From: a candidate division WS6 bacterium GW2011_GWF2_39_15
Lineage (GTDB): Bacteria > Patescibacteriota > Dojkabacteria > SC72
NCBI GenBank assembly: GCA_000993565.1
Contig: LBWK01000001.1
Location: forward strand, 300,208-364,207
Length of the DNA: 64,000 nt
Reading direction: 5' to 3'
Part shown: piece by piece, positions 27,702 to 46,104 of the stretch
Numbering within the stretch: the stretch's first letter is position 1
How the letters are laid out: each line of letters opens with the position of its first letter
Notes under the pieces: model-generated
What the model saw: the letters and a program-made list of their open reading frames with translations, nothing else
Database searches by the model: none
Told to the model about the DNA's origin: nothing
Made by a program: the position numbers and the translations under genes

Positions 27702-28481
27702 TTAAATCTTATTGTAGTAAATATCAACCTTCTGACGAATCTCATCTTCAGTGAATCTTCCTGTTAACCGTAAAAGGTTTTCAATAACAGATTTGTCAAC
27801 GCCGGACTTTCTCATCCATTTAAAATGATATCCCACAGAGTCAATACTTTGTCTATTGTAACCCTCAACTAATGGTCTCCACACATTATTCATCATCTCT
27901 AAAAGTAGATCCCTATTCATTCGTTCAGGAAAGATACTACGAATACAAACGGCTAGACCTTTAACTAATTCAACTGTTCTAATATCTGAAAGGGTAATGT
28001 AAAATAGCCCGCCATTTGACTCTCGGATACCATGTTCACGACTCAATACATCGTAACGCTGAACAGCAGATACTTCTCTAAACACAACTTCTGCATCCTC
28101 ATTAGGATAAAGCACTACAGAGGTTGTCACATGGGCAATTAATTGCTGCAAAGAAGTTAATACCCGACCATGTATTCGAGCCTCTTCATTTGGGACAGTT
28201 TTCCTCTGGTGTACATATGAAGAAGCAGAAACTATATCTGTCTTGACTACGTTACTCACAGTATACTCCCCTGACTGCTCCATAAAGTACCTTCTAGCTT
28301 GCTCCAGGCTCTGCATAAATGAGACATATTCATCAAAAGTCATGCCTTCCTTAATATTTTCGTAAAATGCTCTCTCTCCTCCTGTTGGAGAGCCAGATCC
28401 TGGTCCTAAATCTGTAGCGACTCCATCAACAATTTCGCCACCATCCTGATCGCGTTTGGGAGTAATTGGGTAATTAGTCAT
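27702..28481 (-). CDS. Hypothetical protein, co-operonic with the GT2 gene.
   Basis: 259-aa ORF with an 8-nt overlap with the upstream GT2 gene. Confidence 0.45.
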   Translation of the reverse strand: MTNYPITPKRDQDGGEIVDGVATDLGPGSGSPTGGERAFYENIKEGMTFDEYVSFMQSLEQARRYFMEQSGEYTVSNVVKTDIVSASSYVHQRKTVPNEEARIHGRVLTSLQQLIAHVTTSVVLYPNEDAEVVFREVSAVQRYDVLSREHGIRESNGGLFYITLSDIRTVELVKGLAVCIRSIFPERMNRDLLLEMMNNVWRPLVEGYNRQSIDSVGYHFKWMRKSGVDKSVIENLLRLTGRFTEDEIRQKVDIYYNKI

Positions 28482-29253
28482 TCTTCATACTATTTAAATT
28501 AGCTCTTGAATAATTATATCTGATTTTACTGAAACTCTTCTTTAACTGATACATCTTTAGCTTAGCAAGCTCCAAAGAAACCTCTTTAAAAGCCTTTCTG
28601 AAGTTCAGTTTGGACTCAGCTTTATATATCCATTTGATAGGGAACTCCCTTACTTTAAAACCATTAAACTTACTATCAATGAGTAAGTTTACATCAACCG
28701 TCCACTTATTGGCAACTAATATTTTCATCAGTTTCTTTGCTACATGTCTCTTCATTACCTTTACTGCACACTGAGTATCTGCAAACTTAAGTCCAAACAG
28801 AGTTCTTACTGCAACGTTAAACATTCTTGAAAGAACAAATCTGTAGACTGGCATATCACCGGATATTTCAGACTTTCTCATATATCTGCTACCCATTACC
28901 AGATCAAGCTCCGGATTCTTTTTAAGCATATTAAATCCTTTAACCAAGTCTTTTATTGAAGATGAACCGTCAGCATCCTGATATGCAACGTACTTTCCTT
29001 TACCAATTTTGACACCTCTGGCGATTGCACCACCTTTACCCGTATAACCCTTAATATTCATAACTTTTATGAATTCATAGCTCTTAGCTACCTCTTTGAC
29101 AACATCAACCGTATTGTCTGTGGAATTATTTACAACAACAATTACCTCACATTCAATACTGGACTTTGAGAAGTATTTCCCAAGTTCCATTAGAGTGGGT
29201 CTTATCCTCTTTTCTTCATTGTATGCCGGTATAATTACCGTTAAGTCTTTCAT
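28474..29253 (-). CDS. Glycosyltransferase family 2, polyprenol-phosphate sugar synthase (DPM1/GtrB-like).
   Basis: VIIPAYNEE, VIVVVNNSTDNT, GKGGAIARG and YQDADGS are GT2 DXD-type motifs. Confidence 0.8.
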   Translation of the reverse strand: MKDLTVIIPAYNEEKRIRPTLMELGKYFSKSSIECEVIVVVNNSTDNTVDVVKEVAKSYEFIKVMNIKGYTGKGGAIARGVKIGKGKYVAYQDADGSSSIKDLVKGFNMLKKNPELDLVMGSRYMRKSEISGDMPVYRFVLSRMFNVAVRTLFGLKFADTQCAVKVMKRHVAKKLMKILVANKWTVDVNLLIDSKFNGFKVREFPIKWIYKAESKLNFRKAFKEVSLELAKLKMYQLKKSFSKIRYNYSRANLNSMKND

Positions 29254-29414
29254 ATCATAAAGGCTTTATTTATACACTATATTATACCAAATTATCCCAT
29301 AGTATTCCATTCTCTATATTATAACCTTTGATAGGGGATTCTGAGTATTGACAACAATAATCATTCTGTTTACTATGGATAAGAAAGTAATTTATGGGAT
29401 ACTCATATAATTAA

Positions 29415-29906
29415 ATGGAACCTGCCCGACAAAATATCTCTCAGTTAATAGTAAATGATGATGTTACACAGACAAAGTTCAATCAATTTGCAAAGGAACT
29501 TCAGGATTTAGGAGCATCAGAGAAAGAGATTAAAGAGATAGCCATGGGAGTTGCAAAGACTGCATCTAATCAGACGACAGCAAAAATCAGCCTTTTAATG
29601 GACGATAGCGACTGGAGTAAATGGAAAGCCTTTGTAGATTCAACTCCAACACCAAATGTTGCACAACAACTCATTATCATGAACAAATTCCTTGAAGATA
29701 GGACAGGCAAGAGCCTAGAGACATTGCATCTTGAAATTCTTGATTCATTACTTAAAGATACTCTTGATCAGATTCAAAAGAGAAGGGATATGGCTATTAA
29801 AGTATCCAAACTTTCTGACGAACAGATAGATACCGTTAATGAAGCTCTTGATAATGAGGAGTTTGATAAAGCTGATGATATATTAAATTCTACAAGTACT
29901 AATTAA
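29415..29906 (+). CDS. Small acidic helical protein, translationally coupled to the giant gene.
   Basis: 163 aa, Asp/Glu-rich. The stop TAA overlaps the giant-gene start context (TAAAATG). Confidence 0.5.
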   Translation: MEPARQNISQLIVNDDVTQTKFNQFAKELQDLGASEKEIKEIAMGVAKTASNQTTAKISLLMDDSDWSKWKAFVDSTPTPNVAQQLIIMNKFLEDRTGKSLETLHLEILDSLLKDTLDQIQKRRDMAIKVSKLSDEQIDTVNEALDNEEFDKADDILNSTSTN

Positions 29907-29907
29907 A

Positions 29908-32900
29908 ATGGGACTTAACGCCGGTGGTATGCAAGAAATACATCCTGATATCCAGTCAGATAGAGAGTTAATAACCTCTGGTAAAGTTCCTCAGGGAACT
30001 GCTGAAGCTAATGACAAATTAAATACTCCAGTAGTAGATATTACAAAGACAACTGGTTATTATGGGAATGATTTAACAACCGATCCTCTCCCGCTTACTG
30101 CTGAAGCGACAGCAAAGATACTTAGAAGAGGTCCTGCACAAAATGAAGATAATGGAGAAACAGGCTTGAAAGCCGGCGAGGAAAGACCTAAAACTCAATC
30201 TGCTATTCCTGTAGCCAACGGATCAGCTTATGTCGAATCAGTTAGTCCTTCAACCCCTGCACAGCAGACACCAGACACCGAAGGACTTGATCAACTTAAT
30301 ACCCCCTTATATACGCTTACTGGAGGAGGAGAGACCACTTCGACTAATGTAACTACGCCAAATGCAACAGAAGGTAAAGCAGGTAAAAACGGTACTGATA
30401 CATCAGATGACTTAGTAGCAAAGCTAAGATCAATGTTGTCCCAGGCTGACAAAGATAAGCCTAAAGAACACACTATAGAAACACCTGTAGCCCAGGATCT
30501 CAATCAGGCAGTTACAGCTTTGGCTGCAGAAGTTGCTAAGGAACCTGAAAATAATTCAAAGAAGGAAGAGTTGAACGGCTTAAAGGAATTAAGTCAATCT
30601 GTAACGAACCTCTCACAACAGATAAACCAGGTGAAAATAGAAATCACAAATCAAGTTAATACTCAGGTTGCCCAAATTACTGCAAAGATGGAAGAATCTA
30701 AAGATAAGCTGGCAGGAACGGTAAACCACTATTATATGCAAGGGGGCTCAGTATTTCACGGGACAGTAGGAGCAGGTACACATATAGAAGTTACAAATAC
30801 GGCAAGTAATTTTAATACAGGAGCAGCAGGAATAAGCGTTAGAAATACAGCAGACCACGGAAGTACAATAAACAATGGCAATATTGTAGATGCAGGTGTT
30901 AATCTGGGTATACTAGATTTGAATGCAATGATGGAAGAAGCTGAAAATTTGGACAGGCTTGCAGACGAACCAGAAGCGCCAACTTCTCTAAGTGAGGCGG
31001 CAAGGGACACAGCCGATAAGGCGAGAGAGCTTACAGAGGATATAAAGACAAGAAAAACTGATCGAGTAACAGATCCGGCAGTTACACCTGATTCAAGTTC
31101 AACAACTCATCCACCCGTAATAAAACCTCAACCAAATGTAACACCGAACGATAATCCTCCTACACCTCCACAACCGGCAGTAGCAGTAACAGATGACAGT
31201 AGTGAGCATAAAGACACCGGAGTAACCCCAGAAGAGCAACCTACTTCCGATCCTAAGAAAGCAGCAGAGAATCTAGTAGGGCCATTGACTCCTGAAGAGT
31301 CACAGGAATTTGATAATGCGAATGAAAAGAAAGGTTTTCTCTTCAGCATAAAGAGAATGTTCAGCGGTGAAAACTGGAAGAGATGGGTACCAACAGTGAT
31401 AGGGTCGATCGCAGGTTCATTCGGGGTAAAACTGTTTGCAGGAGCAGCTCTATCAATGGGTCCAATTGGAACCGCATTACTCGGAGGTGCAATGGCTGGT
31501 TTTGCCATATATTCAGGATATAGAGCTATCAAGAACTTAAGTGAGGCAGCCAAGGCGGAAGGTAAATCTGTATGGCAGGTAATGGGCAACTTGGATTTTG
31601 TAAAAGGAGCCTTACTTGGAGGATTAATTTCTGGGGTAGGTAAAGCTTCAGCGAAGTTTATCCCTGGATTCGGTTCGCTTATGGCACTTGGACTTGAAGG
31701 AGGAACTTCGTGGCTATTTGAAAATCACCTTAACAAGAAACAGCAGGAATTAGTTAACAAATACATGGATACATACCAGGCACGCAGGTATGCAAATCTT
31801 AAGGATAAAGGATATGTCATTAGAGGTGCTGAAGGAGCACCTGCTGTAGGAATGGAATCCATACTTAAAGATATGACAAGTGCACCTTCAGAATCAGAAA
31901 AGAAGGTAGCAAAGAGAGCTGCACTTGCTTCCCTTATACATCTCTACAGCATAACTAAGGATGATGCCCATAAATTTGTTGAGTATACGATAAAGGAGAA
32001 CGGTGTCGATAAGGTGATTAAGGTTGATATTACACAAATTGCGATTGATGAAGCAGAAGGAAGTACAGAGAAATACAGAATGCTTCAACTTAAAGATACT
32101 GACAAGATTAATGTCGAGAAATTTATAGATACATTAGATACAGCCAAACTTACATCAGCGATTCAAGATGCATGGAACAAAACCGATGCAACTAAGAGGG
32201 CTGATATGGCTAAGGATCTTGTAAACCTCTTCGTTGGCTTGGAAGGCACAGAAGTAGAGAAGATTATGTCGGAAGAGAGAAAGAGCTATCTCTCATGGAT
32301 CAACTTCACAACTGGGTTACACTTTGGTATGGCGGCAGTAAATGTTGGATCCTCTCTTGCAGGAGCTTACGGAGCATTCAGAGACAATTTTGGTGTCAAT
32401 CATGATGCACAGGGAGTAAACACCTCAGATTCTCAACAAGCAACAGAAGATTATAGAAGTGCCCATCCAGAAGCCCCGCAGGCAGAAGTAGAGAGGGTAG
32501 TAAATGCTGAAGGCCACATAATTGATAAGGTAGATGTAGACGGAGGCGGCGTAGACTACTACGTCGACCAAACTACAAACCAATATGTTGTACTTTCTGG
32601 GACCGGTGCTGAAAGCGTATTTGAAATACAACACCCGGATCTTGGACAGGTAACCGCAACTGAAGTAACTACCCACGGAGATACAGGCATTGTTGCCACT
32701 TTGAGTGATAATGCAGGAAAAGTTGTTGGTGTAACATATGCCGACTCTACTGGACACATTGGAGTTTTGGATATGAACGGCGTAGGTCAGCATCTATTTG
32801 CAGGTGGAGGAGAGAGCCCAATACACGGAGTAACTCTCACTGATATACAGCCAAATGGTGATGCAACATTAGTTTTAGACAATGTAAACCATCAAGTAAA

Positions 32901-35259
32901 TCTAGGAAATCTTAACCTTGAACTTGACGGATCATCAACATCAGAGGTTCAGACACAGATTGGTGTATTGATGCCACAGAGTGGAGATTCAGTAAATAGT
33001 ATGCTTCACCATACAATTGAACAGGCTAAAACTCTGAATCCTAATTTGCAACAATATGACAATCTGGAACTTGAGAGAATGCTTTACCAGGAAGGAAGTG
33101 GTATCCATGCTAATGACGCCGCGATAAGGCAGGAGTTAGGTATCAGGGGAGCACTTGATGTATCAGAGGAATGGAGCTGGAAAGATTCACCTACAATTAT
33201 GTCCTGGCTAACGGAGCTTAACGGTGGGAATACTGTGGAACTAGGTTCACAGACAGTTACAGGCGGAACACCTGGTGTAAACACTTTCTTTGAAGGGCCG
33301 GAAGTTTCCGCATTTGACGTTGCAAATGCAGGATCTGCACCTGGAGAATCAGGTGGCTTTATCAGTGTAATGGATAGAATCGTAGAGCCATCACTTCTTG
33401 CTTTGGTAGGTGGTGTGATGGCAGGTGTATTTGCTTCACAACCTAAGAGTGGCGGTATTTCAAGGCAGAACGATGTAAATACCGCAACGGCAAAAGCCGG
33501 TGATGATAAGACAAAAGATGACAAAGGCAAGGGAGTAAGCAAAGAAACCTCAGTTGAATTAGCAGCAGGAGAAGGAGCTGTTGAAAAGAAAGTCGGAGGG
33601 CCAAAGGATGTAATCGTAAATCAGATACTTAAGAACGTTATACCTAATAAATATGTTGAGATAGCTGGAAAGAAATATATTCAGGTAGAGAGTGCACCTG
33701 GGCAATGGAAAGAAAAAGATGTTAAAGACGCCCAGCCTATATCAGCTGAAGACCTTGCAGATCTACTCTTGAATCAAACGGATAAGAATCTAAGAAGTAA
33801 AGATCTATCTGGAATACTTAATAGTGCGGCCATCAAAGGTGGGGCAACTATAAAATTAACGGAGGAAGATGGTTCTGAGACAACATATAAGAAGTCCGTA
33901 AAAGACAATGAACCAGGAAAGAGGCCTGTCAAATTAGTATCATGGATTAACACAGAGACAAAGAAGAGTAGCGATGTTCTAACTAGCGATGCACTTGCGA
34001 CCAAGATCCTTGATTTGAAGGAAAAGACAGTTACAGTATCAACGCCATCTGGAAGTCCACAAGGAGGACCAAGTGCTGAAGCTGGTGGAGACGAAACAAA
34101 GAAAGAGGGTGAGGTAGATAAGGAAAAAGCTCTGAAAGAAACTTTAAACAATATATTAGAAACTCTTCATATTGATAAAAAGCAAGTTGTTATTAATGGT
34201 GAAAAATACGAATATAACAAGGATGCCAAAATATGGATAAAGTCAGGTGCATTGTTCAACAAGAATCTAATTCAGAAAGGCTCTGATAATCTTAGTGACC
34301 AGCAAGTTGTTGAATCCTGGATTAAACTTGAGTCAAAACAGCTTGGGAAGGATTTGGAAACAACTCTTGGGAACGTCGACAGTGGGAAAAAGATAAATGT
34401 TATTGACGAAATATTTAGTAAGACACCGACCTCAGTATTGAAACAAGCAAATTACAATGGCGATGTTTATACTTATGATTCAGAAAAAGATGTATGGAAT
34501 AAGGATAAAAAGAGTAAAACGGCAAGTCCAAAGAGTATCACAGGATCTGGAATGACAACCTATATAGCGAATGGTACGGCCAACGCACTCCCAAGCAAAA
34601 AAGAAAATCTGATTTGGAAATCAGATACCAGAGCTTTTAATGACAAAGATTTGGCATTAGAAATTGCAAAACTGAGGGTAAGCACTAAGGAAGTAAAGTC
34701 TGAAACAAAATCCGCAGACAGTAATGCAGAAGGGGAAAAGAACAAGGAAGAAAAAGAGAAGAAAGAAAGTAAGGGCAGAAAACTCCTTAAGACAGCGCTT
34801 ATAGTATTAGCCGTAGCAGGAGGTATTACCTCATATGCAGTTGGTGGTTGGCAAGTAGCAGCAATTACATCAGGCATCAGCTGGTTGACGACACTTGGTC
34901 TAAATATCGGAGAAGGTTTGGCACAAAAAGGTATAAGCAAGAGACAAGCCGAAGCCGCTGAACTAGCAGAAAAGCTTAAAAACGAGAAACGAGCACTGAA
35001 GCCTGATGAAGAAAAGTCGTTGGAGGAAAGGAAGAGGAAGGACGAAAGGGCTAGAAATATTATTTATTGGCTCAAATTTGCCAGTAAAGTCACGGGTGCC
35101 CTATCAATATCATCTGGAGCTTCTGCACTGTTAGGTTTAGTGATTGATAAGTTCCAGATTAACATAAAAGGAATAATCGGAGGTGCTTTCAATAGACCAG
35201 AGATAAACCAAGTTCCTTTTGAACAAACAATAGACGAATCACTTAACTTAGGAAAGTAA
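29908..35259 (+). CDS. Giant 1783-aa membrane/surface protein.
   Basis: Uninterrupted 5.35-kb ORF. The first 274 aa hold a T/P-rich stretch and a coiled coil. The shared 52-aa module YYMQGGSVFHGTVG...NNGNI follows at aa 275-326. A glycine-zipper TM cluster (WVPTVIGSIAGSFGVKLFAGAALSMGPIGTALLGGAMAGFAIY...) follows at ~aa 490-600. The C-terminal third has degenerate repeats (G-x-x-Y-x-Y-x5-W-x-K, four copies). A C-terminal TM pair is present (LIVLAVAGGITSYAVGGWQVAAI). Confidence 0.8.
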   Translation: MGLNAGGMQEIHPDIQSDRELITSGKVPQGTAEANDKLNTPVVDITKTTGYYGNDLTTDPLPLTAEATAKILRRGPAQNEDNGETGLKAGEERPKTQSAIPVANGSAYVESVSPSTPAQQTPDTEGLDQLNTPLYTLTGGGETTSTNVTTPNATEGKAGKNGTDTSDDLVAKLRSMLSQADKDKPKEHTIETPVAQDLNQAVTALAAEVAKEPENNSKKEELNGLKELSQSVTNLSQQINQVKIEITNQVNTQVAQITAKMEESKDKLAGTVNHYYMQGGSVFHGTVGAGTHIEVTNTASNFNTGAAGISVRNTADHGSTINNGNIVDAGVNLGILDLNAMMEEAENLDRLADEPEAPTSLSEAARDTADKARELTEDIKTRKTDRVTDPAVTPDSSSTTHPPVIKPQPNVTPNDNPPTPPQPAVAVTDDSSEHKDTGVTPEEQPTSDPKKAAENLVGPLTPEESQEFDNANEKKGFLFSIKRMFSGENWKRWVPTVIGSIAGSFGVKLFAGAALSMGPIGTALLGGAMAGFAIYSGYRAIKNLSEAAKAEGKSVWQVMGNLDFVKGALLGGLISGVGKASAKFIPGFGSLMALGLEGGTSWLFENHLNKKQQELVNKYMDTYQARRYANLKDKGYVIRGAEGAPAVGMESILKDMTSAPSESEKKVAKRAALASLIHLYSITKDDAHKFVEYTIKENGVDKVIKVDITQIAIDEAEGSTEKYRMLQLKDTDKINVEKFIDTLDTAKLTSAIQDAWNKTDATKRADMAKDLVNLFVGLEGTEVEKIMSEERKSYLSWINFTTGLHFGMAAVNVGSSLAGAYGAFRDNFGVNHDAQGVNTSDSQQATEDYRSAHPEAPQAEVERVVNAEGHIIDKVDVDGGGVDYYVDQTTNQYVVLSGTGAESVFEIQHPDLGQVTATEVTTHGDTGIVATLSDNAGKVVGVTYADSTGHIGVLDMNGVGQHLFAGGGESPIHGVTLTDIQPNGDATLVLDNVNHQVNLGNLNLELDGSSTSEVQTQIGVLMPQSGDSVNSMLHHTIEQAKTLNPNLQQYDNLELERMLYQEGSGIHANDAAIRQELGIRGALDVSEEWSWKDSPTIMSWLTELNGGNTVELGSQTVTGGTPGVNTFFEGPEVSAFDVANAGSAPGESGGFISVMDRIVEPSLLALVGGVMAGVFASQPKSGGISRQNDVNTATAKAGDDKTKDDKGKGVSKETSVELAAGEGAVEKKVGGPKDVIVNQILKNVIPNKYVEIAGKKYIQVESAPGQWKEKDVKDAQPISAEDLADLLLNQTDKNLRSKDLSGILNSAAIKGGATIKLTEEDGSETTYKKSVKDNEPGKRPVKLVSWINTETKKSSDVLTSDALATKILDLKEKTVTVSTPSGSPQGGPSAEAGGDETKKEGEVDKEKALKETLNNILETLHIDKKQVVINGEKYEYNKDAKIWIKSGALFNKNLIQKGSDNLSDQQVVESWIKLESKQLGKDLETTLGNVDSGKKINVIDEIFSKTPTSVLKQANYNGDVYTYDSEKDVWNKDKKSKTASPKSITGSGMTTYIANGTANALPSKKENLIWKSDTRAFNDKDLALEIAKLRVSTKEVKSETKSADSNAEGEKNKEEKEKKESKGRKLLKTALIVLAVAGGITSYAVGGWQVAAITSGISWLTTLGLNIGEGLAQKGISKRQAEAAELAEKLKNEKRALKPDEEKSLEERKRKDERARNIIYWLKFASKVTGALSISSGASALLGLVIDKFQINIKGIIGGAFNRPEINQVPFEQTIDESLNLGK
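30730..30886 (+). repeat. Coding copy A of a 157-bp inverted repeat (the partner is 37090..37246).
   Basis: By eye it aligns to the reverse complement of 37090..37246 with ~13 mismatches in 157 nt. It is codon-aligned, starting at codon 275 of the giant gene. Confidence 0.8.
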
Positions 35260-35285: not shown

Positions 35286-35729
35286 ATGGTAGAGGAAATT
35301 GCAAAACTAATAGATCAGTTAAAAACTTACGGCCTTGATAATGCAAAACTATCAGCTCTATACCAGTTGGCAGTAGAAGATTTTCTTGAGGAGGTTCAAA
35401 CAGACCTAACAGAAATCTCCGATAGTGACCTAACCGACATAGAGTCATCACTTAAAGACATAACCATTGATAGCTTAGCAGAAGGTAATAATGATCCTTT
35501 CATGACGACTTTACGAAAACTATATGGAGCTCAAGCAGAACCGAGATTCTTGAAATTCCTTAAGGAATACTTTGAAGATGCTGTTAAGCAAGCCCAATCA
35601 GCAAAAGAGCTACTAGAGAAATATAAAGCTAATGATCCTGAAGTTCTAAAGAAGTTAGAGGAAGCAAAAATGAACGAGGATTATGATACGATGGAGGCTA
35701 TTATCAAGAGCCTTAATCCTGGAGAATAG
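35286..35729 (+). CDS. Small acidic helical protein.
   Basis: 147-aa ORF immediately downstream of the giant gene. Confidence 0.5.
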   Translation: MVEEIAKLIDQLKTYGLDNAKLSALYQLAVEDFLEEVQTDLTEISDSDLTDIESSLKDITIDSLAEGNNDPFMTTLRKLYGAQAEPRFLKFLKEYFEDAVKQAQSAKELLEKYKANDPEVLKKLEEAKMNEDYDTMEAIIKSLNPGE

Positions 35730-35740
35730 TCTTAAAAGAG

Positions 35741-37288
35741 TTATTCTCTAACCCTTACAAACTCACTTTGTGATACAAAATGTATCCCGGTATCTGCTTG
35801 AAACACCTTTCTTCCTTCTTCAAACCACTTACCTTCAGGTGGATTGATCGAAGTCAGAATACCCAAGTATACAAAAGCTAAAAGCTGACATCCTGCCGGA
35901 GATTTATCAAACTTCTGCAACTTTGTATTTACTTTTGCTTTCTGTAATTCATTAAGTTCATCAGTTTCAAGAGGGGAGAGAAGATTGAATGAGCCTTTTT
36001 CTTCAATCATTATTCTAAATACTGAATTGAACTGCATATTCATATTACTAGCCAACCAATGTATTTTTTCTGAAGGTGTAAAATCGTCCCTCCAACCATC
36101 TGGGATTCTATCTTTTCGGATACCACCTTCCATTGGATCCACATAGTGAATTACATATCCTCCAAAGGCTTCATCTTTCACAGGAGTACTCAATATCGCA
36201 CGCGCATGTCCGCCAATATGACGATCCTGGGAAGAATAGTAGATACCAACCGGAATTCCCCATCTGTCTCCAAGCTTTGCCATATCAGTTACATTTATCT
36301 CAGTCTCTCTATTGGCATAGCTATCTAGACGGGGAACATCATCCTGTGCTCTTGGCCAGACATCATGATCAGGAAGTTCATCCGTTGTAATGTGGAATTC
36401 GGCTGGCCTACCAGGTTCCCTTGTTTCATGAACGTTTAGGTCATCGATATAAGGAGGTACAAAACCATGCAAAAGGTACTCTCTAACATCGGAACCTTTC
36501 TGGGACAAGATTTTCCTGAACATATCTTCAAGATAATTCGCAACGGTCAGGTTCCTATTTACCCAATGCTGAACCAGTGAGGCATCCATAATGGGTTCCT
36601 CAAGTAGAACAGCTGGAACCTCAACCATTAACCGGCTATGATCTTCCTGCTCTCGGATTATTAGGATAAATAAAGGGTTTTCTTTAGTATCAGAATCCAG
36701 TTCATCTTCTTTTGTCACAACAATATCAACGACGTCTTCATCCTCTTTTGTTTCAATATCAGGGTAAATACTAACCATGTCTTCAAGGTTTTCACCTAAG
36801 GCTTCAGTGAGTTGCATTTGATTTTTTACAATTTGTATTTGGTCATCAATGCTATCTATTTCCTCGCTTATGTCTAAATCTCCGTGATCTGTACTCGTAT
36901 GTGGAGCTGTTTCTTCTCCTTTTGGTCGCAGCGGCTCATCAGATTTTGAAGGAATTGTGGATACCGGAGTTGCACTGTCTACTTTCTGAGGTTCTGGGGT
37001 TGAGGTCTTCTTTTCTGTATCATCAAAGGTAGCAGCTTCTTCCATTGTAGTATCCTGTGTCAAAGTTTTCAGACTAGTCTTTGTGACGGCAATATTGCCA
37101 TTGTTTATTGTGCTTCCATGGTCTGCTGTATTTCTAACGCCTATTCCGACTGCTCCTGTATTGAAATTACTTGCCATATTTGTAACTTCTATATGGGAAT
37201 CTGATCCTACTGTTCCGTGAAATACTGAGCCCCCATGCATATAATATTCATTTGAAGATTCAACACTTTTCTTCCTTTGACCATTCAT
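35741..37288 (-). CDS. 515-aa protein with the shared N-terminal module, an acidic linker and a C-terminal globular domain.
   Basis: aa 15-66 (YYMHGGSVFHGTVGSDSHIEVTNMASNFNTGAVGIGVRNTADHGSTINNGNI) are ~85% identical to giant-protein aa 275-326. An S/T/P/E-rich linker follows. The C-terminal ~250 aa contain conserved-looking His/Cys residues (RHIGGHARAI, SPAGCQLLAF). Confidence 0.7.
   Translation of the reverse strand: MNGQRKKSVESSNEYYMHGGSVFHGTVGSDSHIEVTNMASNFNTGAVGIGVRNTADHGSTINNGNIAVTKTSLKTLTQDTTMEEAATFDDTEKKTSTPEPQKVDSATPVSTIPSKSDEPLRPKGEETAPHTSTDHGDLDISEEIDSIDDQIQIVKNQMQLTEALGENLEDMVSIYPDIETKEDEDVVDIVVTKEDELDSDTKENPLFILIIREQEDHSRLMVEVPAVLLEEPIMDASLVQHWVNRNLTVANYLEDMFRKILSQKGSDVREYLLHGFVPPYIDDLNVHETREPGRPAEFHITTDELPDHDVWPRAQDDVPRLDSYANRETEINVTDMAKLGDRWGIPVGIYYSSQDRHIGGHARAILSTPVKDEAFGGYVIHYVDPMEGGIRKDRIPDGWRDDFTPSEKIHWLASNMNMQFNSVFRIMIEEKGSFNLLSPLETDELNELQKAKVNTKLQKFDKSPAGCQLLAFVYLGILTSINPPEGKWFEEGRKVFQADTGIHFVSQSEFVRVRE
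37090..37246 (-). repeat. Coding copy B of the 157-bp inverted repeat.
   Basis: Reverse complement of the 30730..30886 copy. Codon-aligned, starting at codon 15 of the 515-aa gene. Confidence 0.8.
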
Positions 37289-37333: not shown

Positions 37334-38644
37334 TTATTTCAGCGGATGCTTCTCCTTATGCGTCTCCTGTGCATACTTATCTGATGCATGCACATATCTT
37401 GTTGTTGTATTGAGACTTTCATGACCAAGCAATACCTGTATAGCAGCAGGACTCGCACCATTTTCAGCCAAATATGTTGCAAAACCATGCCTTAAACTAT
37501 GTGCAGAAGTAGGGACTAAAATGCCTAATCTACGCCTATAATTAGCAATACACTCCTGAAAATAGTTTGTAGATAATCGCGCATTTACATGTTTAGCCCT
37601 AGTCCCGCGAAGCGGAGTAAACAGGGCAGGGGAGTCAAACTTATCCAAGTATCTTGATTTCCTATATTCCTCAATGGTTTTCACATACCTCCACCTATCG
37701 TTTGCATCACTTATGAGATCAACAATATCCTTATTATCCTCAGATGTTTCACGATCAAGTATAAAAGCATGTCTCAGCCTTATCTCTAAATATCTATCCA
37801 ACCAATCCATTGCCCGGTCAGTCATATAAACGAACCTCTCTTTCTTTCCTTTACCCTTTATAAACAGCTTCCCGTCAAGGTTTATCTGATCCAGATTGAG
37901 ATTAATAAGCTCCGAGATACGCATACCAGTTGAAAAAAGCAACTCCATCATTGCACGATTACGCACTCCGACATCATGATCGTGCTCAAACTCAACCGGT
38001 GACTCAATCAGTCTAACTAAATCTTCCAACTCAGCCACCTGTGATTTCTTCTTGTCCGCCTTAATTAATTTAATTGCATCAGGAGGAATTGGAACCTCCA
38101 AATCTCTATCAATTCTGAATTTCAAATAACTTCTGATTGCACTCAACATACGATTGACGCTTCGGGCATCCAAACCGGTATCAGATCGACTGGAGACATT
38201 GGCAGGCTTACCGTGTACCCCAAGACTTCCGAACACCTTGCGATATACATCCTCGAGAAATTTTCCTTTAAACTCGGTACTTTCCGTCTCACTCACAGGT
38301 CTCAATACAGTACCCTCAGGCACTTCGACGGTTCTAGACCCCTTGTAGCCCTTTGAGGTATCTTCCTGTGCTGTATCAACCTTTCTTAAGTATTTCTCCC
38401 TTATTTTATCCAAATCCTTCAAATGATCACCATTTCTAAGGTAGCCCTTGTACAAAGTCACCTGTTCTTTATTCAACTTCTCAAAGGAATACGAATTAGC
38501 ATCAAGAAACACTGCAAAAATTGAAAGATCCCGTGCGTAATTAAGTACTGTCTGCATACTATAATTGTTATTCTGAAGCTCTAAAAGAAAGGAGTCCTGA
38601 TCAGGAAGCTTCGGAATTACTGTGTTCATATTTTTAGAAGACAT
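37334..38644 (-). CDS. Tyrosine site-specific recombinase (XerC/XerD/integrase family) with a ~130-aa insertion.
   Basis: The N-terminal core-binding domain and the C-terminal catalytic domain carry ...AHSLRHGFATYL... and LLGHESLNTTTRYVH (HxxR and the Tyr nucleophile). At 436 aa it is longer than a typical ~300-aa Xer. Confidence 0.85.
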   Translation of the reverse strand: MSSKNMNTVIPKLPDQDSFLLELQNNNYSMQTVLNYARDLSIFAVFLDANSYSFEKLNKEQVTLYKGYLRNGDHLKDLDKIREKYLRKVDTAQEDTSKGYKGSRTVEVPEGTVLRPVSETESTEFKGKFLEDVYRKVFGSLGVHGKPANVSSRSDTGLDARSVNRMLSAIRSYLKFRIDRDLEVPIPPDAIKLIKADKKKSQVAELEDLVRLIESPVEFEHDHDVGVRNRAMMELLFSTGMRISELINLNLDQINLDGKLFIKGKGKKERFVYMTDRAMDWLDRYLEIRLRHAFILDRETSEDNKDIVDLISDANDRWRYVKTIEEYRKSRYLDKFDSPALFTPLRGTRAKHVNARLSTNYFQECIANYRRRLGILVPTSAHSLRHGFATYLAENGASPAAIQVLLGHESLNTTTRYVHASDKYAQETHKEKHPLK

Positions 38645-39082
38645 GGGAGTAGGGGGGTGAAATTTTAGTATTTAGGATAGTAGGGATATAGGAGGTATTA
38701 ATAACATAATTTACTATCTTTCTATCCAGATCTTCATACATAATAAATAATAGCATCTATTGTGAATATATAAAAATAGCTTAAATAGAGCACTTCTCTG
38801 TTCTCCTCTATGCTCTACCGCATATAAGAGCGATTATACTCGGTAGTATATTACCTGATATATACTACTCTGTAAAGGGAAGACCCATCATATTAAAGGT
38901 GTGCACACATTCATATAAATAAATATTAAGACCCTTTATTAATAAGTACTAATAATAAAGATTATTCATTGATAGAAGGAGGTACTACACTGTAAAGATA
39001 TCCACAGATTTACTATAAGATATTAATCACTATGGGATAGCTAGCACTCCCCCTCCCCTTTGCTTATCGTAACATGGAAAAA

Positions 39083-43058: not shown

Positions 43059-43577
43059 ATGAAAAGGAAGAAAGAGACTACACTTGAGACTCTTGATAGG
43101 AAACTGGACGAGATCTCGGAGAGATTAAAAGACCATGACAGCAGGTTTATATCTATAGACAAAAGGTTTGATAGTGTAGACAATCAATTCATCAGCATAG
43201 CTAAAAAATTTGATAGTATCGACAATCAATTTATCAGCATAGATAAAAGGCTTGACAGTTTCGATAAACAATTCGCTAACATAGACAAAAGGTTTAATAT
43301 AGTGAATAAAAGATTTGATTTAGTAAACGGAAAACTTATAAAAATAGCTCGGGAGCAAACCTCAAACTCCATGTCTCTGTTCTCATTGGGCGACAAGATT
43401 AATAATCTTGAAAGTCTTTACGAAACAGTTAATGATAAACTTGATACATCAATGATTATCTCAAATAAGCTTTTCGCTGAATATTCACAGAAGATTGAAG
43501 TACTGGATTATAAAGTCAATGAAATAAGTCTAAAACTTGCTGACAAGGAGACTAATCAAAAGTACAAGAAAAAATAG
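43059..43577 (+). CDS. Coiled-coil protein built from 11-aa tandem repeats.
   Basis: DKRFDSVDNQFISI, AKKFDSIDNQFISI, DKRLDSFDKQFANI, DKRFNIVNKRFDLV. The underlying DNA is 33-bp tandem repeats (43140-43330). Confidence 0.5.
   Translation: MKRKKETTLETLDRKLDEISERLKDHDSRFISIDKRFDSVDNQFISIAKKFDSIDNQFISIDKRLDSFDKQFANIDKRFNIVNKRFDLVNGKLIKIAREQTSNSMSLFSLGDKINNLESLYETVNDKLDTSMIISNKLFAEYSQKIEVLDYKVNEISLKLADKETNQKYKKK
43140..43330 (+). repeat. 33-bp imperfect tandem repeats within the CDS (~5-6 units).
   Basis: Consensus ...gacaaaaggtttgatagtgtagacaatcaattcatcagcata... repeated with substitutions. Confidence 0.6.
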
Positions 43578-43581
43578 ACCT

Positions 43582-46104
43582 CTACTCTTGATCCATATTA
43601 TTCTGAGCCGGAATCACTACAGGTGAACCTATTTCCCCTGCTTTTACAACACTTGGCATCTCCACGTTTGAAGATACTGTCTCTGTTCTTTTTCCATTAT
43701 TTACATTCATTAATGCCCTATTCCCTTTATCACTATACTTCTGTTCACTCCATCTTCTAATCTTGTCTTCTATAACTTCCTGGTCTGCACTATACCTCTC
43801 TCTAGAGTTTTGTATAATCTTCTCTTTATTCCCAAATTTCTCATATCTAAGATCTAGAGATTTGGCGCTGAAAGGTTTTGAAGTCATCCCATCAATACAA
43901 AGCTTCACATAAAGAGAGTGGGATTCAAGAGAGACAAGGTCCTCTGCAGAAAATATTGGAGCAAACTCATTAGAGAGAATCGATGCATCTCCCTGGCTAA
44001 CTACAAATGAAGCCAGTGTTCCCACATTACCAAAAATAGCCTGCCTTACAGTTAAAGGTATCTGATCTATATACTGGTTGGTCATGGTGAGATTAAGTTT
44101 GAACTTTCTGGCTTCTGAAAGAATTTTTGCAAAAGAATCTGTTGCAAAGTTCTGAAACTCATCAACATAGAGATAGAAGTCTCTTCTTTGTGCCATAGGG
44201 ATATCAACTCTCTCCATTGCCGTAGATTGGAGCCTTGTAATTAACATCCCGCCAAGCAGAGCCGAACTTTCCTCTCCGATCTTGCCTTGAGCCAAGTTAA
44301 CTAACAATATTTTGCCCTCATCCATAACATTTCTCAAATTAAAGGAGGACTTCACCTGCCCGACTATATTTCTAATTACAGCAGAAGATATAAACCGGCC
44401 AACCTTGTTCTGAATAGGTGCAACTGCCTCCGAAACCAGCTTAGAGTTCTGCGACATCTGTGCAAACTCCTCCTCCCAGAACTTATATAAGATGGGATCT
44501 TTCACCTGTTTAAGAATAAACTTGCGGTAGTTTCGATCATTAAGAAGCCGCATAACCGAGAGAATTGTTGTTCCCTGAGCTTCAAGAGCAGTTGAAATGG
44601 TGTTAGTAAGGATGTATTGAAGACGTGGCCCCCAAGACTCAAACTGCTTTTTGAAAACTTCCACAACACCATCCGCAACCAGATCCCGCTGTGACGAGTC
44701 ATTCATCTCCAAAAGGTTGAAAGCAATTGGGTGCTTCACGTCTGCAGGGTCAAAATATATGACATCGTTCACTCTTTCAGGGGGAATGAAATCGAGAAGC
44801 TCATCAACCGTCTCACCGTGAGGGTCTATAAAACACGCTCCGTTACCGGCAATCACATCTGAAATGAACATATTCTTGAATACCGTTGATTTACCTACCC
44901 CCGTTTTACCCAATAAATAGACGTGGCGTCTTCTATCGTCCTTCTTAACTCCAAAGGATATTTTCTGCCCCCGATAGTCAGTCTCAGCAAAGGCATTAAC
45001 GTCAGGCTCCCCGGCAAGAGGCAGATCCATTGGAGGTTCAGCTTTCCTTGCCCTGCTCCACAAAATATTCGGCGTCTCCACAGAAATATTTGGCAGATGA
45101 AAAACAGAGGCAAGTTCTTCAATATTCAGAATATCTTCAGGTGTAGAAACCAATTTTCTCTTCAGGAAATCGCCGTATATTGATTGGGCACTCTGGTTAG
45201 GTGCCGAATGGACAAAGCTATTCAGGTGAGCAGTTGTAAACTGCTTGAAACTAGCAACAAGATCTCTAAGTATCTGCTCAGATCTTGGCTGATCGGGAGA
45301 TTTTGTAACAACCCTAATACTCACTTCAAACCCAAGTTTAAGCATTTTGGTTTCAATCTGAGTGAGCTCTTCCTGCTGGCCTGGCGCCAGCTTTACAACC
45401 TCTTTACCTCCACCTTTCTCTGTAGATGTCTGAAGGGATTTCGAGATATCCTTAACCATCTTCATAAGGAGTTCCCCAATACTGTTAATAGAGCTCTTCC
45501 CCTCCTTAATCTCCGTAATATATTTCTTTGAAGCCTCCTGCCAATAATTAGCTATTGGTCTCATGTTGAACTGCACCCAAGCTTCCTCTCCAAGCTTTAG
45601 GCCTGAAATGGCACTTGTAATAGCGGCCAGAGGATCAACTTCAAAGTTCCGAAATGTTTTAATCGGGAATATATAACTCTTATCAAGTTCTACAATTCCG
45701 GTACTCACAAAAACCTGTGATTCTCCACGAGTCGCAGTGTAGTCCTGAACATGCTTAATTTCAGCATTTGGATACTGTGCATAGATCTGTCCCTGAACAA
45801 ACTCGGCAAGATGCGCAGGGATAACGGCATAGAAACGTATCCCATTTTCACCTGAAGACACTATTTCAAACGAAATTAGATCCAACGACTTCTTGGAATC
45901 TCTTAGAATTCCATGCAATGATGCAAACATCTGTTCCGCTGCTAGAGGCGTTTTATCATTCTCTCTAGGCACAAGAATTTGTAAAACCTGAGGATTTCTC
46001 ACCTCTTCAAACACAACAACACTCTTAGGCTTCTGTGCAAAGGTGAAAACAAACAGCACAAAAAATACTGATAGAATGAGTAATATTAGTATTGTCCCTG
46101 TCAT
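43582..46104 (-). CDS. TraD/TraG/VirD4-like (type IV coupling protein family) P-loop ATPase with an N-terminal TM anchor and a ~350-aa pre-ATPase domain.
   Basis: Walker A LLGKTGVGKST is followed by a FIDPHGE motif resembling the T4CP DPKGE motif. Walker B is YLYVDEFQNF. A single N-terminal TM helix is present. 840 aa. Confidence 0.55.
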   Translation of the reverse strand: MTGTILILLILSVFFVLFVFTFAQKPKSVVVFEEVRNPQVLQILVPRENDKTPLAAEQMFASLHGILRDSKKSLDLISFEIVSSGENGIRFYAVIPAHLAEFVQGQIYAQYPNAEIKHVQDYTATRGESQVFVSTGIVELDKSYIFPIKTFRNFEVDPLAAITSAISGLKLGEEAWVQFNMRPIANYWQEASKKYITEIKEGKSSINSIGELLMKMVKDISKSLQTSTEKGGGKEVVKLAPGQQEELTQIETKMLKLGFEVSIRVVTKSPDQPRSEQILRDLVASFKQFTTAHLNSFVHSAPNQSAQSIYGDFLKRKLVSTPEDILNIEELASVFHLPNISVETPNILWSRARKAEPPMDLPLAGEPDVNAFAETDYRGQKISFGVKKDDRRRHVYLLGKTGVGKSTVFKNMFISDVIAGNGACFIDPHGETVDELLDFIPPERVNDVIYFDPADVKHPIAFNLLEMNDSSQRDLVADGVVEVFKKQFESWGPRLQYILTNTISTALEAQGTTILSVMRLLNDRNYRKFILKQVKDPILYKFWEEEFAQMSQNSKLVSEAVAPIQNKVGRFISSAVIRNIVGQVKSSFNLRNVMDEGKILLVNLAQGKIGEESSALLGGMLITRLQSTAMERVDIPMAQRRDFYLYVDEFQNFATDSFAKILSEARKFKLNLTMTNQYIDQIPLTVRQAIFGNVGTLASFVVSQGDASILSNEFAPIFSAEDLVSLESHSLYVKLCIDGMTSKPFSAKSLDLRYEKFGNKEKIIQNSRERYSADQEVIEDKIRRWSEQKYSDKGNRALMNVNNGKRTETVSSNVEMPSVVKAGEIGSPVVIPAQNNMDQE

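Follow-up and report, generated by a model that had tools for sequence, protein, structure and literature searches.

Many large membrane proteins without annotation are encoded in the genomes of Candidate Phyla Radiation bacteria (CPR, or Patescibacteria), where orphan families are also common, and it is routine to take such proteins for surface adhesins. In the type VIIb secretion system, EsaA/YueB proteins are polytopic, with an ectodomain placed between transmembrane (TM) segments and with genes for small helical WXG100 partners, and phage tape-measure proteins are long and nearly free of cysteine (Cys), with coiled coils, glycine (Gly)-rich hydrophobic hairpins, and an upstream chaperone gene. 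The CPR are noted for giant membrane-associated proteins, which have been proposed to act in host attachment; the ten longest proteins of Vampirococcus lugosii contain interaction domains (WD40, TPR, and PKD) and are inferred to be surface fibres (PMC8080830). By analogy, these three kinds of protein are the closest functional counterparts, none of them with homology support, of the product of a giant gene lying in a 64,000-nucleotide stretch of DNA (the window) from candidate division WS6 bacterium GW2011_GWF2_39_15. The gene is real and specifies a multi-pass cytoplasmic-membrane protein (hereafter the giant protein), and by sequence comparison this protein founds a small, previously undescribed family that is detected only in Dojkabacteria (WS6).

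The open reading frame (ORF) of the giant protein has 1783 codons, starts with ATG, is free of Cys, and has a predicted product of 191 kDa. It is the longest ORF of the window, where the runners-up have 1006, 926, and 840 amino acids (aa), and a frame of this length at 39–42% G+C would be beyond chance. The exact protein is deposited as "hypothetical protein UT34_C0001G0333" of the same WS6 bacterium, from a contig of 868,911 bp, and it is called, residue for residue, on seven contigs from ENA, Logan, and NCBI assemblies that represent at least two samples. Because the protein is identical across independent assemblies, an assembly fusion is excluded as the origin of the ORF, and homologues elsewhere, 1300–2000 aa long, have the same layout. 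The first-pass annotation of this DNA, made by a model from the letters and their ORFs, was therefore right to describe one real ORF of 5.35 kb, and it also stands that no known domain can be recognised, as Pfam, NCBIfam, PHROGs, and PADLOC give no match for the giant protein.

When 1.84 billion cluster representatives were scanned exhaustively with HMMER, aa 476–1675 of the giant protein being the query, only 15 matches were returned, from which about 13 relatives were counted, nearly all of them from Dojkabacteria; the earlier proposal of a new family is thereby supported. Eleven matches fell below 1e-30, all from proteins of 989–2028 aa, and covered query aa ~476–1190 at 29–38% identity. 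The source names, where given, are "hypothetical protein" from Candidatus Dojkabacteria metagenome-assembled genomes (MAGs), and three names among the relatives are odd, one being a 3-kb contig binned as Heimdallarchaeaceae and the other two the spurious automatic labels "Arc/MetJ regulator" and "RlmF." An alignment-based pattern scan across GTDB species (one genome each), with its finds checked by tblastn, gave eight related loci (a single-sequence version found nothing), all labelled Dojkabacteria or "uncultured Saccharibacteria," and a metagenome scan gave six more; no relatives were found among viral contigs (IMG/VR), phages (INPHARED), or plasmids (PLSDB). A family typical of episymbiotic small-genome bacteria in general, as first suggested, is thus too wide a description, since members are seen only in Dojkabacteria-type MAGs. 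New means here only that no described family is related to this one; a new kind of system is not proven. One of the CPR giants thus belongs to a tiny lineage-restricted family, with about a dozen 50%-identity clusters among the 1.84 billion representatives, and the family could be used as a lineage marker for Dojkabacteria.

The architecture of the family was read from alignments A2, A5, and A6 together with hydropathy profiles. A common core of ~700 aa is made up of a juxtamembrane helix, two Gly/Ala-rich TM hairpins, a ~195-aa domain, a fifth TM segment (TM5), an acidic domain of ~330 aa (the predicted ectodomain), and a sixth TM segment (TM6). It follows variable, hydrophilic N-termini of 100–650 aa without a signal peptide; in the giant protein, tblastn alignments to relatives start only at aa ~410–450, and the threonine/proline (T/P)-rich low-complexity stretches noticed at the outset are present at aa 100–200 and 400–500. 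A conserved juxtamembrane motif (L-T-E-E-x-K...G-F-x-A-x-I-x-R-x-F-x-G-x-x-W-K) is found in the family. The Gly/Ala-rich TM cluster, first reported as a glycine zipper, consists of two hydrophobic blocks of ~45 aa, read as two hairpins, in which Gly accounts for 21–29% and Gly, Ala, and Ser together for 47–49% of the residues, with eight small-xxx-small motifs per block; the blocks are kept across 16 members, and the cluster is conserved in all members. The ~195-aa domain (aa 601–797) remained without a match in fold searches.

The predicted ectodomain, between TM5 and TM6, accounts for 36 of the 44 columns that are invariant in A2 and comprises a beta-rich part, with an invariant D-x-D-x-(D/G)-G-x-x-D loop, and a helical part, with the motifs GDS..., NP, ND..IR.E, and SP..L..LN.G. 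For the beta-rich part, with its invariant IDLDGDGxxDL-type loop and the ~12 beta-strands modelled around it, the FG-GAP/DxDxDG calcium loops of integrin-like beta-propellers are a possible comparison, at a similarity below threshold. The FG-GAP motif of the ectodomain is single and scores 12–15 bits against cut-offs of 22–27 (three of five members), the D.D..D loop gives sub-threshold matches to FG-GAP, FG-GAP_3, and CRTAC1, and Foldseek matches to propellers have E = 0.2–1.5. A LysM reading of the GDS...NP...ND..IR segment was rejected, as none of five ectodomains matches at E <= 10 and the model has four or five helices, whereas LysM is beta-alpha-alpha-beta.

The region after TM6 is modular across the family and may contain one to five copies of a 45-aa repeat, a glycosyltransferase family 2 (GT2) domain, or other domains, and in most members the repeats are followed by a C-terminal TM hairpin, a basic coiled coil, and a final TM segment. 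The giant protein has five repeat copies (aa 1250–1294, 1319–1374, 1427–1478, 1515–1555, and 1554–1593), the module being a beta-hairpin with G..Y.Y...W followed by a helix with [ST]..eLA..I. Four G-x-x-Y-x-Y-x5-W-x-K repeats had been described here; the literal motif has no exact match in the giant protein, but the repeats themselves are real, and all four positions lie among the five copies. A slightly relaxed motif has two matches against 0.0005 expected, a hidden Markov model (HMM) built from the window copies alone picks up another ten copies among relatives but no copy in ten locally shuffled sets, and after four iterations the HMM finds 32 copies in real sequences vs. 0–1 in shuffled ones. 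The TM hairpin reported near the C-terminus is present, together with one further TM segment, and this C-terminal module is kept in L003, L004, L007, L013, P0002, P0003, P0005, P0006, P0011, and P0016. In P0014 (825 aa, partial), a GT2 domain stands after TM6 in place of the repeat region. Of the unrecognised domains after TM6, one is common to P0007 and P0009, and another, ending in ...IPEYL, is common to P0004 and P0009. Separately, N-terminal repeats of ~85 aa (VYDG...Y.KMP...W...LTDEE.A), which the C-terminal repeat HMM misses, occur in P0004, P0006, P0009, and P0013.

Under Sec targeting, a long hydrophilic N-terminus without a signal peptide is expected to stay cytoplasmic, and GT2 domains need cytoplasmic nucleotide sugars. 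In all 17 members, the first 40 residues are hydrophilic and contain no hydrophobic run longer than five residues, and the first hydrophobic block of every full-length member starts more than 100 aa in; neither a signal peptide nor a conserved LPxTG was found in any member, and the giant protein has no SLH or other Pfam domain. Counts of lysine plus arginine (K+R) in 20-aa flanks, taken over 14 members, are 35 before TM1, 38 before TM5, 19 after TM5, 5 before TM6, and 36 after TM6. The domain between TM5 and TM6 has an isoelectric point (pI) of 4.2, with 9 K+R in 330 aa, the pI of the repeat region is 8.7, and that of the coiled coil after the C-terminal hairpin is 9.8. Because of the N-terminus without a signal peptide, the charge bias, the regional pI, and the GT2 fusion, an N-in, mostly cytoplasmic topology is predicted, in which the N-terminus would be cytoplasmic and only aa ~827–1156 and the last ~35 residues would lie outside; ~70% of the protein, repeats included, would then be cytoplasmic and ~20% outside. 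The extracytoplasmic region of more than 1000 aa in the first-pass annotation does not survive this analysis, since it is split by two conserved hydrophobic segments that had been missed (aa 798–826 and 1157–1177) and the charge pattern leaves only the two parts named above outside.

Two small genes, U and D, flank the giant gene (Table 1), and their products are both acidic, as had been noted. The junction of U and the giant gene reads TAA-A-ATG, which bears out the proposed translational coupling, and across loci the gap is 1–25 nt between U and the giant gene and 2–26 nt between the giant gene and D. Because this tight spacing is conserved across loci, U, the giant gene, and D are considered one operon, and comparison of the gene neighbourhood across related genomes found the U–giant–D order kept. 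Of the layout first suggested for these genes, the partner part is supported, with U and D as conserved partners in the operon; the secreted or surface effector part is not supported. D occurs only where the giant protein retains its C-terminal TM module (seven of seven loci vs. none of two), which is weak evidence of interaction because the two are adjacent in the DNA and one deletion explains their joint loss. U and D were rejected as paralogues, with no BLASTP match and an hhalign probability of 1.4% over 44 C-terminal columns.

Table 1. Positions in the 64,000-nucleotide window of the giant gene, its domains, and features of the surrounding locus.
Feature	Position	Strand	Remarks
GT2 glycosyltransferase gene, divergent from U	28474..29253	-	Domain match
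Promoter-like site TTGACA-17-TACTAT, ~40 nt 5' of U	29348..29376	+	10/12 consensus positions; scan overall not above chance
U, 163-aa acidic helical protein	29415..29906	+	pI 4.5; 41–47% identical in seven related loci, always directly upstream
Giant gene, founder of Dojkabacteria-restricted family, polytopic membrane protein	29908..35259	+	1783 aa
N-terminal ~490 aa, hydrophilic, T/P-rich, coiled-coil-like, predicted cytoplasmic	29908..31383	+	Not conserved; no signal peptide
164-nt inverted repeat, left arm	30723..30886	+	Encodes giant-protein aa ~273–326; 90% complementary to right arm
Gly/Ala-rich TM cluster of two hydrophobic hairpins (aa 493–535 and 566–600)	31384..31707	+	Conserved GP.G and PG.GP turns
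~195-aa alpha/beta domain (aa 601–797), predicted cytoplasmic	31708..32298	+	Alignment A2; AlphaFold2 pLDDT 70–86
TM5 (aa 798–826)	32299..32385	+	Conserved in family; weakly hydrophobic (1.09) in window protein
Predicted ectodomain (aa 827–1156)	32386..33375	+	Most conserved part of family; A2 invariant columns
TM6 (aa 1157–1177)	33376..33438	+	Hydropathy, family alignment
Five copies of ~45-aa repeat module, predicted cytoplasmic	33655..34686	+	HMM
C-terminal module: TM hairpin (aa 1625–1672), basic coiled coil (1673–1726), last TM (1727–1749)	34780..35154	+	Hydropathy
D, 147-aa acidic helical protein	35286..35729	+	pI 4.35; 28–36% identical in six loci
515-aa ORF, convergent	35741..37288	-	N-terminus duplicates giant-protein aa ~273–326 module
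164-nt inverted repeat, right arm	37090-37253		Inside 515-aa ORF; arms 6.2 kb apart
Xer-type recombinase gene	37334-38644	-	436 aa
Interval between xer and 271-aa gene	38645-39082	-	Intergenic
dif-like palindrome ACCGAGTATAA-TCGCTC-TTATATGCGGT	38817-38844	-	In intergenic region 38645-39082, beside xer
172-aa ORF	43059-43577	+	Tandem 11-residue units
840-aa ATPase gene	43582-46104	-	TrwB/HerA/FtsK-type

Searches against known families and folds gave little for any part of the operon. U has no match in Pfam, NCBIfam, or PHROGs, and D has only weak matches under the curated thresholds of Pfam, NCBIfam, and PADLOC. Against PDB sequences, phmmer and profile searches (giant protein, U, and D) and the sequence of the 515-aa protein gave nothing below E = 0.09, the best match of U being the divisome adaptor GpsB at a non-significant E = 0.19. 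AlphaFold2 (AF2) models were made of aa 608–1107 (11 sequences, mean predicted local distance difference test (pLDDT) score 65) and aa 440–835 (12 sequences, mean pLDDT 64), and Foldseek of these models against PDB gave a best E of 0.018 with TM-scores of at most 0.2. No confident match to an S-layer or type IV secretion system (T4SS) family, which the first-pass annotation had set as a refutation test, was found in the sequence or PDB fold searches. A defence-system component was rejected, as PADLOC is without a match for the giant protein, U, and the 515-aa protein.

The comparison with the three analogous systems is one of layout. The giants of V. lugosii are similar in having more than 1300 aa, membrane segments, no functional annotation, and a small, reduced genome as their setting, but they carry WD40, TPR, and PKD domains, whereas the WS6 family is without a known domain or signal peptide and is predicted to be ~70% cytoplasmic; no sequence relationship between the two was detected. 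EsaA/YueB likewise have TM helices on both sides of an ectodomain and are accompanied by genes for small acidic all-helical proteins. They differ in that there is no sequence or fold similarity, the WS6 operon lacks an EssC/FtsK-type secretion ATPase, U and D have 147–163 aa and are not WXG hairpins of ~100 aa, and the WS6 giant is predicted to be mostly cytoplasmic. Similarly, tape-measure proteins are matched in length, near-absence of Cys, coiled coil, Gly-rich hairpins, and a coupled small acidic upstream gene, but the giant protein has no PHROG or Pfam match and no phage genes nearby, and its chromosomal position is fixed across species.

The favoured, though tentative, reading is that the giant protein may be a scaffold that spans the envelope and has a link to glycan or envelope biogenesis. 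Its Gly-zipper hairpins would drive oligomerisation in the membrane, and the conserved ectodomain, which bears the DxDxDG calcium-loop motif, would touch the cell's own wall or surface glycan. The cytoplasmic N-terminal region, the repeats, and the C-terminal coiled coil would dock U, D, and possibly the neighbouring glycosyltransferases, and the scaffold would thereby couple cytoplasmic glycan or envelope synthesis to a fixed envelope site. A conserved ligand, not a variable host surface, is suggested because 36 of the 44 invariant columns fall in the ectodomain. The link to glycan synthesis is drawn because a GT2-domain gene lies 0.3–1.4 kb 5' of U in seven of seven loci, whichever its orientation, and because P0014 carries a GT2 fusion. 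Several points weigh against the scaffold. No homology or fold match links any part of the giant protein to a known function, the AF2 models are moderate (mean pLDDT 64–65), and the glycosyltransferase link is one of association only, the sole GT2 fusion (P0014) being an incomplete ORF from a contig of 3.7 kb. Within a single lineage of small genomes, conserved gene order may come from overall collinearity instead of function, and the topology is based on hydropathy, charge bias, and a single fusion protein, with TM5 weakly hydrophobic in the window protein. The mostly cytoplasmic architecture predicted here and the conserved operon point to interaction partners and to envelope or glycan phenotypes before host binding.

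The same Gly-zipper cluster could possibly have a pore or an oligomerisation role, and if its hairpins formed a channel, the giant protein would be a pore or translocon exporting glycan, protein, or another macromolecule, or would serve as a conduit to a host cell, with the ectodomain as the outer vestibule and with U and D as cytoplasmic substrates or chaperones. This explanation draws on the Gly/Ala-rich TM blocks with their many small-xxx-small motifs in all members, the small acidic helical proteins in the same operon, and the adjoining glycosyltransferase genes. Gly-zipper motifs are, however, also frequent in helix packing without a channel, the TM cluster is modelled at a pLDDT of only 35–70 with no specific structural match, and the operon is without an ATPase or other energising component. 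A pore is considered unlikely, but it ranks directly after the scaffold.

Variation of the N-terminal region by recombination was also considered. The "conserved module" of the first-pass annotation (aa ~273–326) is rather a duplication shared with the 515-aa ORF and forms one arm of the inverted repeat, while the other arm encodes the N-terminus of that ORF. Because both arms are in frame, inversion would yield open chimeras, which in a simulated inversion have 775 and 1523 aa; the two proteins would thereby exchange their C-terminal bodies. The repeat-flanked segment has a single orientation in the window and the two assemblies compared (a weak test, from assemblies only), the 515-aa gene is absent from the equivalent position in all related loci, and the recombinase beside it is also kept in loci without the inverted repeat and has its own dif-like site. 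A compound proposal would make U–giant–D a Dojkabacteria-specific envelope machine, with an oligomeric Gly-zipper ring, a calcium-binding ectodomain, and a modular cytoplasmic platform that couples glycosyltransferases or cargo to the cell surface or host, its head being exchangeable, in this genome, with the 515-aa protein by inversion at the 164-nt repeat; taken as a whole, this is improbable. In an observation apart from the repeat, conserved-looking residues in the C-terminal part of the 515-aa protein follow the order His...Asp...Cys (GGHARAIL, HYVDPMEGG, and SPAGCQLL), and this protein could be a Cys peptidase.

The first-pass annotation had favoured a surface adhesin or secreted effector with dedicated chaperones, whose large C-terminal part would lie outside and attach to a host. 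Giant membrane-associated proteins of the CPR have been proposed for this purpose (PMC8080830), the N- and C-terminal regions of the family are variable and domain-shuffled, and the small acidic neighbours look like chaperone genes. However, the missing signal peptide and conserved LPxTG, the positive-inside pattern, and the basic repeat region, which is predicted to be in the cytoplasm, argue against a large secreted or surface effector, and the GT2 domain fused at the repeat position in P0014 makes an outside location of that region unlikely. The sole domain predicted to be outside is also the most conserved, which is the opposite of what is expected of a host-specific adhesin. A Sec-exported or sortase-anchored adhesin or S-layer protein was rejected for want of a signal peptide, a conserved LPxTG, and an SLH or wall-binding Pfam domain, and the adhesin or effector reading is given little credence.

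Equally little credence is given to a cell-division or chromosome-terminus scaffold, in which the giant protein would act at the division site with the neighbouring Xer recombinase and dif-like site, RuvABC, and the FtsK/HerA/TrwB-like 840-aa ATPase. By tblastn with the window proteins, the conserved locus order is GT2, U, giant, D, Xer (-), a 271-aa polytopic protein (-), RuvB/A/C (-), YebC (-), and the 840-aa ATPase (-), and the order from the giant gene to the ATPase in related loci is one argument for this explanation. Known dif sites have the layout ...ATAA-N6-TTAT..., which is also that of the palindrome beside xer. This palindrome occurs only once in the window and differs in other loci only in its spacer, and because the cumulative GC skew of the window has its maximum near 36 kb, the two together suggest that the locus lies at the replication terminus. 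The best PDB match of U, GpsB, would fit a divisome role, but it is non-significant, and no divisome domain was detected. The neighbouring genes are, moreover, on the opposite strand and not co-transcribed, and the downstream housekeeping neighbours are 54–74% identical across loci vs. 29–38% for the core of the giant protein, which fits plain housekeeping synteny.

A mobile-element protein, either tape-measure-like or a T4SS or conjugation component such as VirB6/TrbL, is largely refuted and can be regarded as highly improbable: its length, lack of Cys, coiled coil, Gly-rich segments, and coupled small acidic upstream gene recall tape-measure proteins, and a tyrosine recombinase and a TrwB-like ATPase lie 2 and 8 kb away, but it has no PHROG, Pfam, or NCBIfam match and no IMG/VR, INPHARED, or PLSDB relatives, its synteny with housekeeping genes is fixed on the chromosome in related loci, and the recombinase, conserved with its dif-like site, is probably a housekeeping Xer. 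Each of the specific candidates was also rejected singly. The tape-measure or prophage candidate has no PHROG match, no IMG/VR or INPHARED relatives, and no tail-morphogenesis module around it, and a plasmid origin has no PLSDB relatives in its favour. The T4SS candidate (VirB6/TrbL or TcpH-like) has no Pfam or NCBIfam match, and no VirB4, VirB8, or VirB6 is present in the window, where the sole T4SS-related gene encodes the 840-aa TrwB/HerA-like ATPase, 8 kb off on the opposite strand with RuvABC and YebC in between.

The Xer-type recombinase has 436 aa vs. the usual ~300, and its conservation with the dif-like site suggests a housekeeping Xer, not an integrase or invertase; by analogy with XerS/difSL or XerH/difH, a single-recombinase Xer/dif module is suggested. 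The additional residues separate the N-terminal SAM-like domain (aa 18–70) from the catalytic domain (aa 223–422), and all related loci share the longer form (454–476 aa aligned). The interval between xer and the 271-aa gene and its counterparts in L003–L009 are 430–460 nt long, with strongly conserved blocks, and each lies between the arms of a conserved, long-range inverted repeat of 10 bp (AGAGTAGGGG ... CCCCTACTYT). A non-coding RNA was rejected for this interval, because Rfam gave no match, the fold z-score was -1.1, and just three pairs covary, and the interval is better read as holding the dif-like site and promoter elements. The Xer gene and dif-like site, with the probable terminus, may help in curating the genome.

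On the other side of the operon, the GT2 gene is divergent from U in the window and in L005, and it is part of a co-directional GT4–GT2 fusion in L004 and others; further upstream, the window contains two GT4 genes and a gene for a 546-aa polytopic protein. The 840-aa protein has an N-terminal TM segment, DUF8128, and a TrwB/HerA/FtsK-type P-loop (PADLOC mad8, E = 7e-13), and because it is 69–74% identical across Dojkabacteria loci, its probable role is that of a housekeeping DNA translocase, not of a conjugation coupling protein. The adjoining 172-aa ORF consists largely of tandem 11-residue units (DKRFDSVDNQFISI-like) and has only weak Pfam matches to coiled coils.

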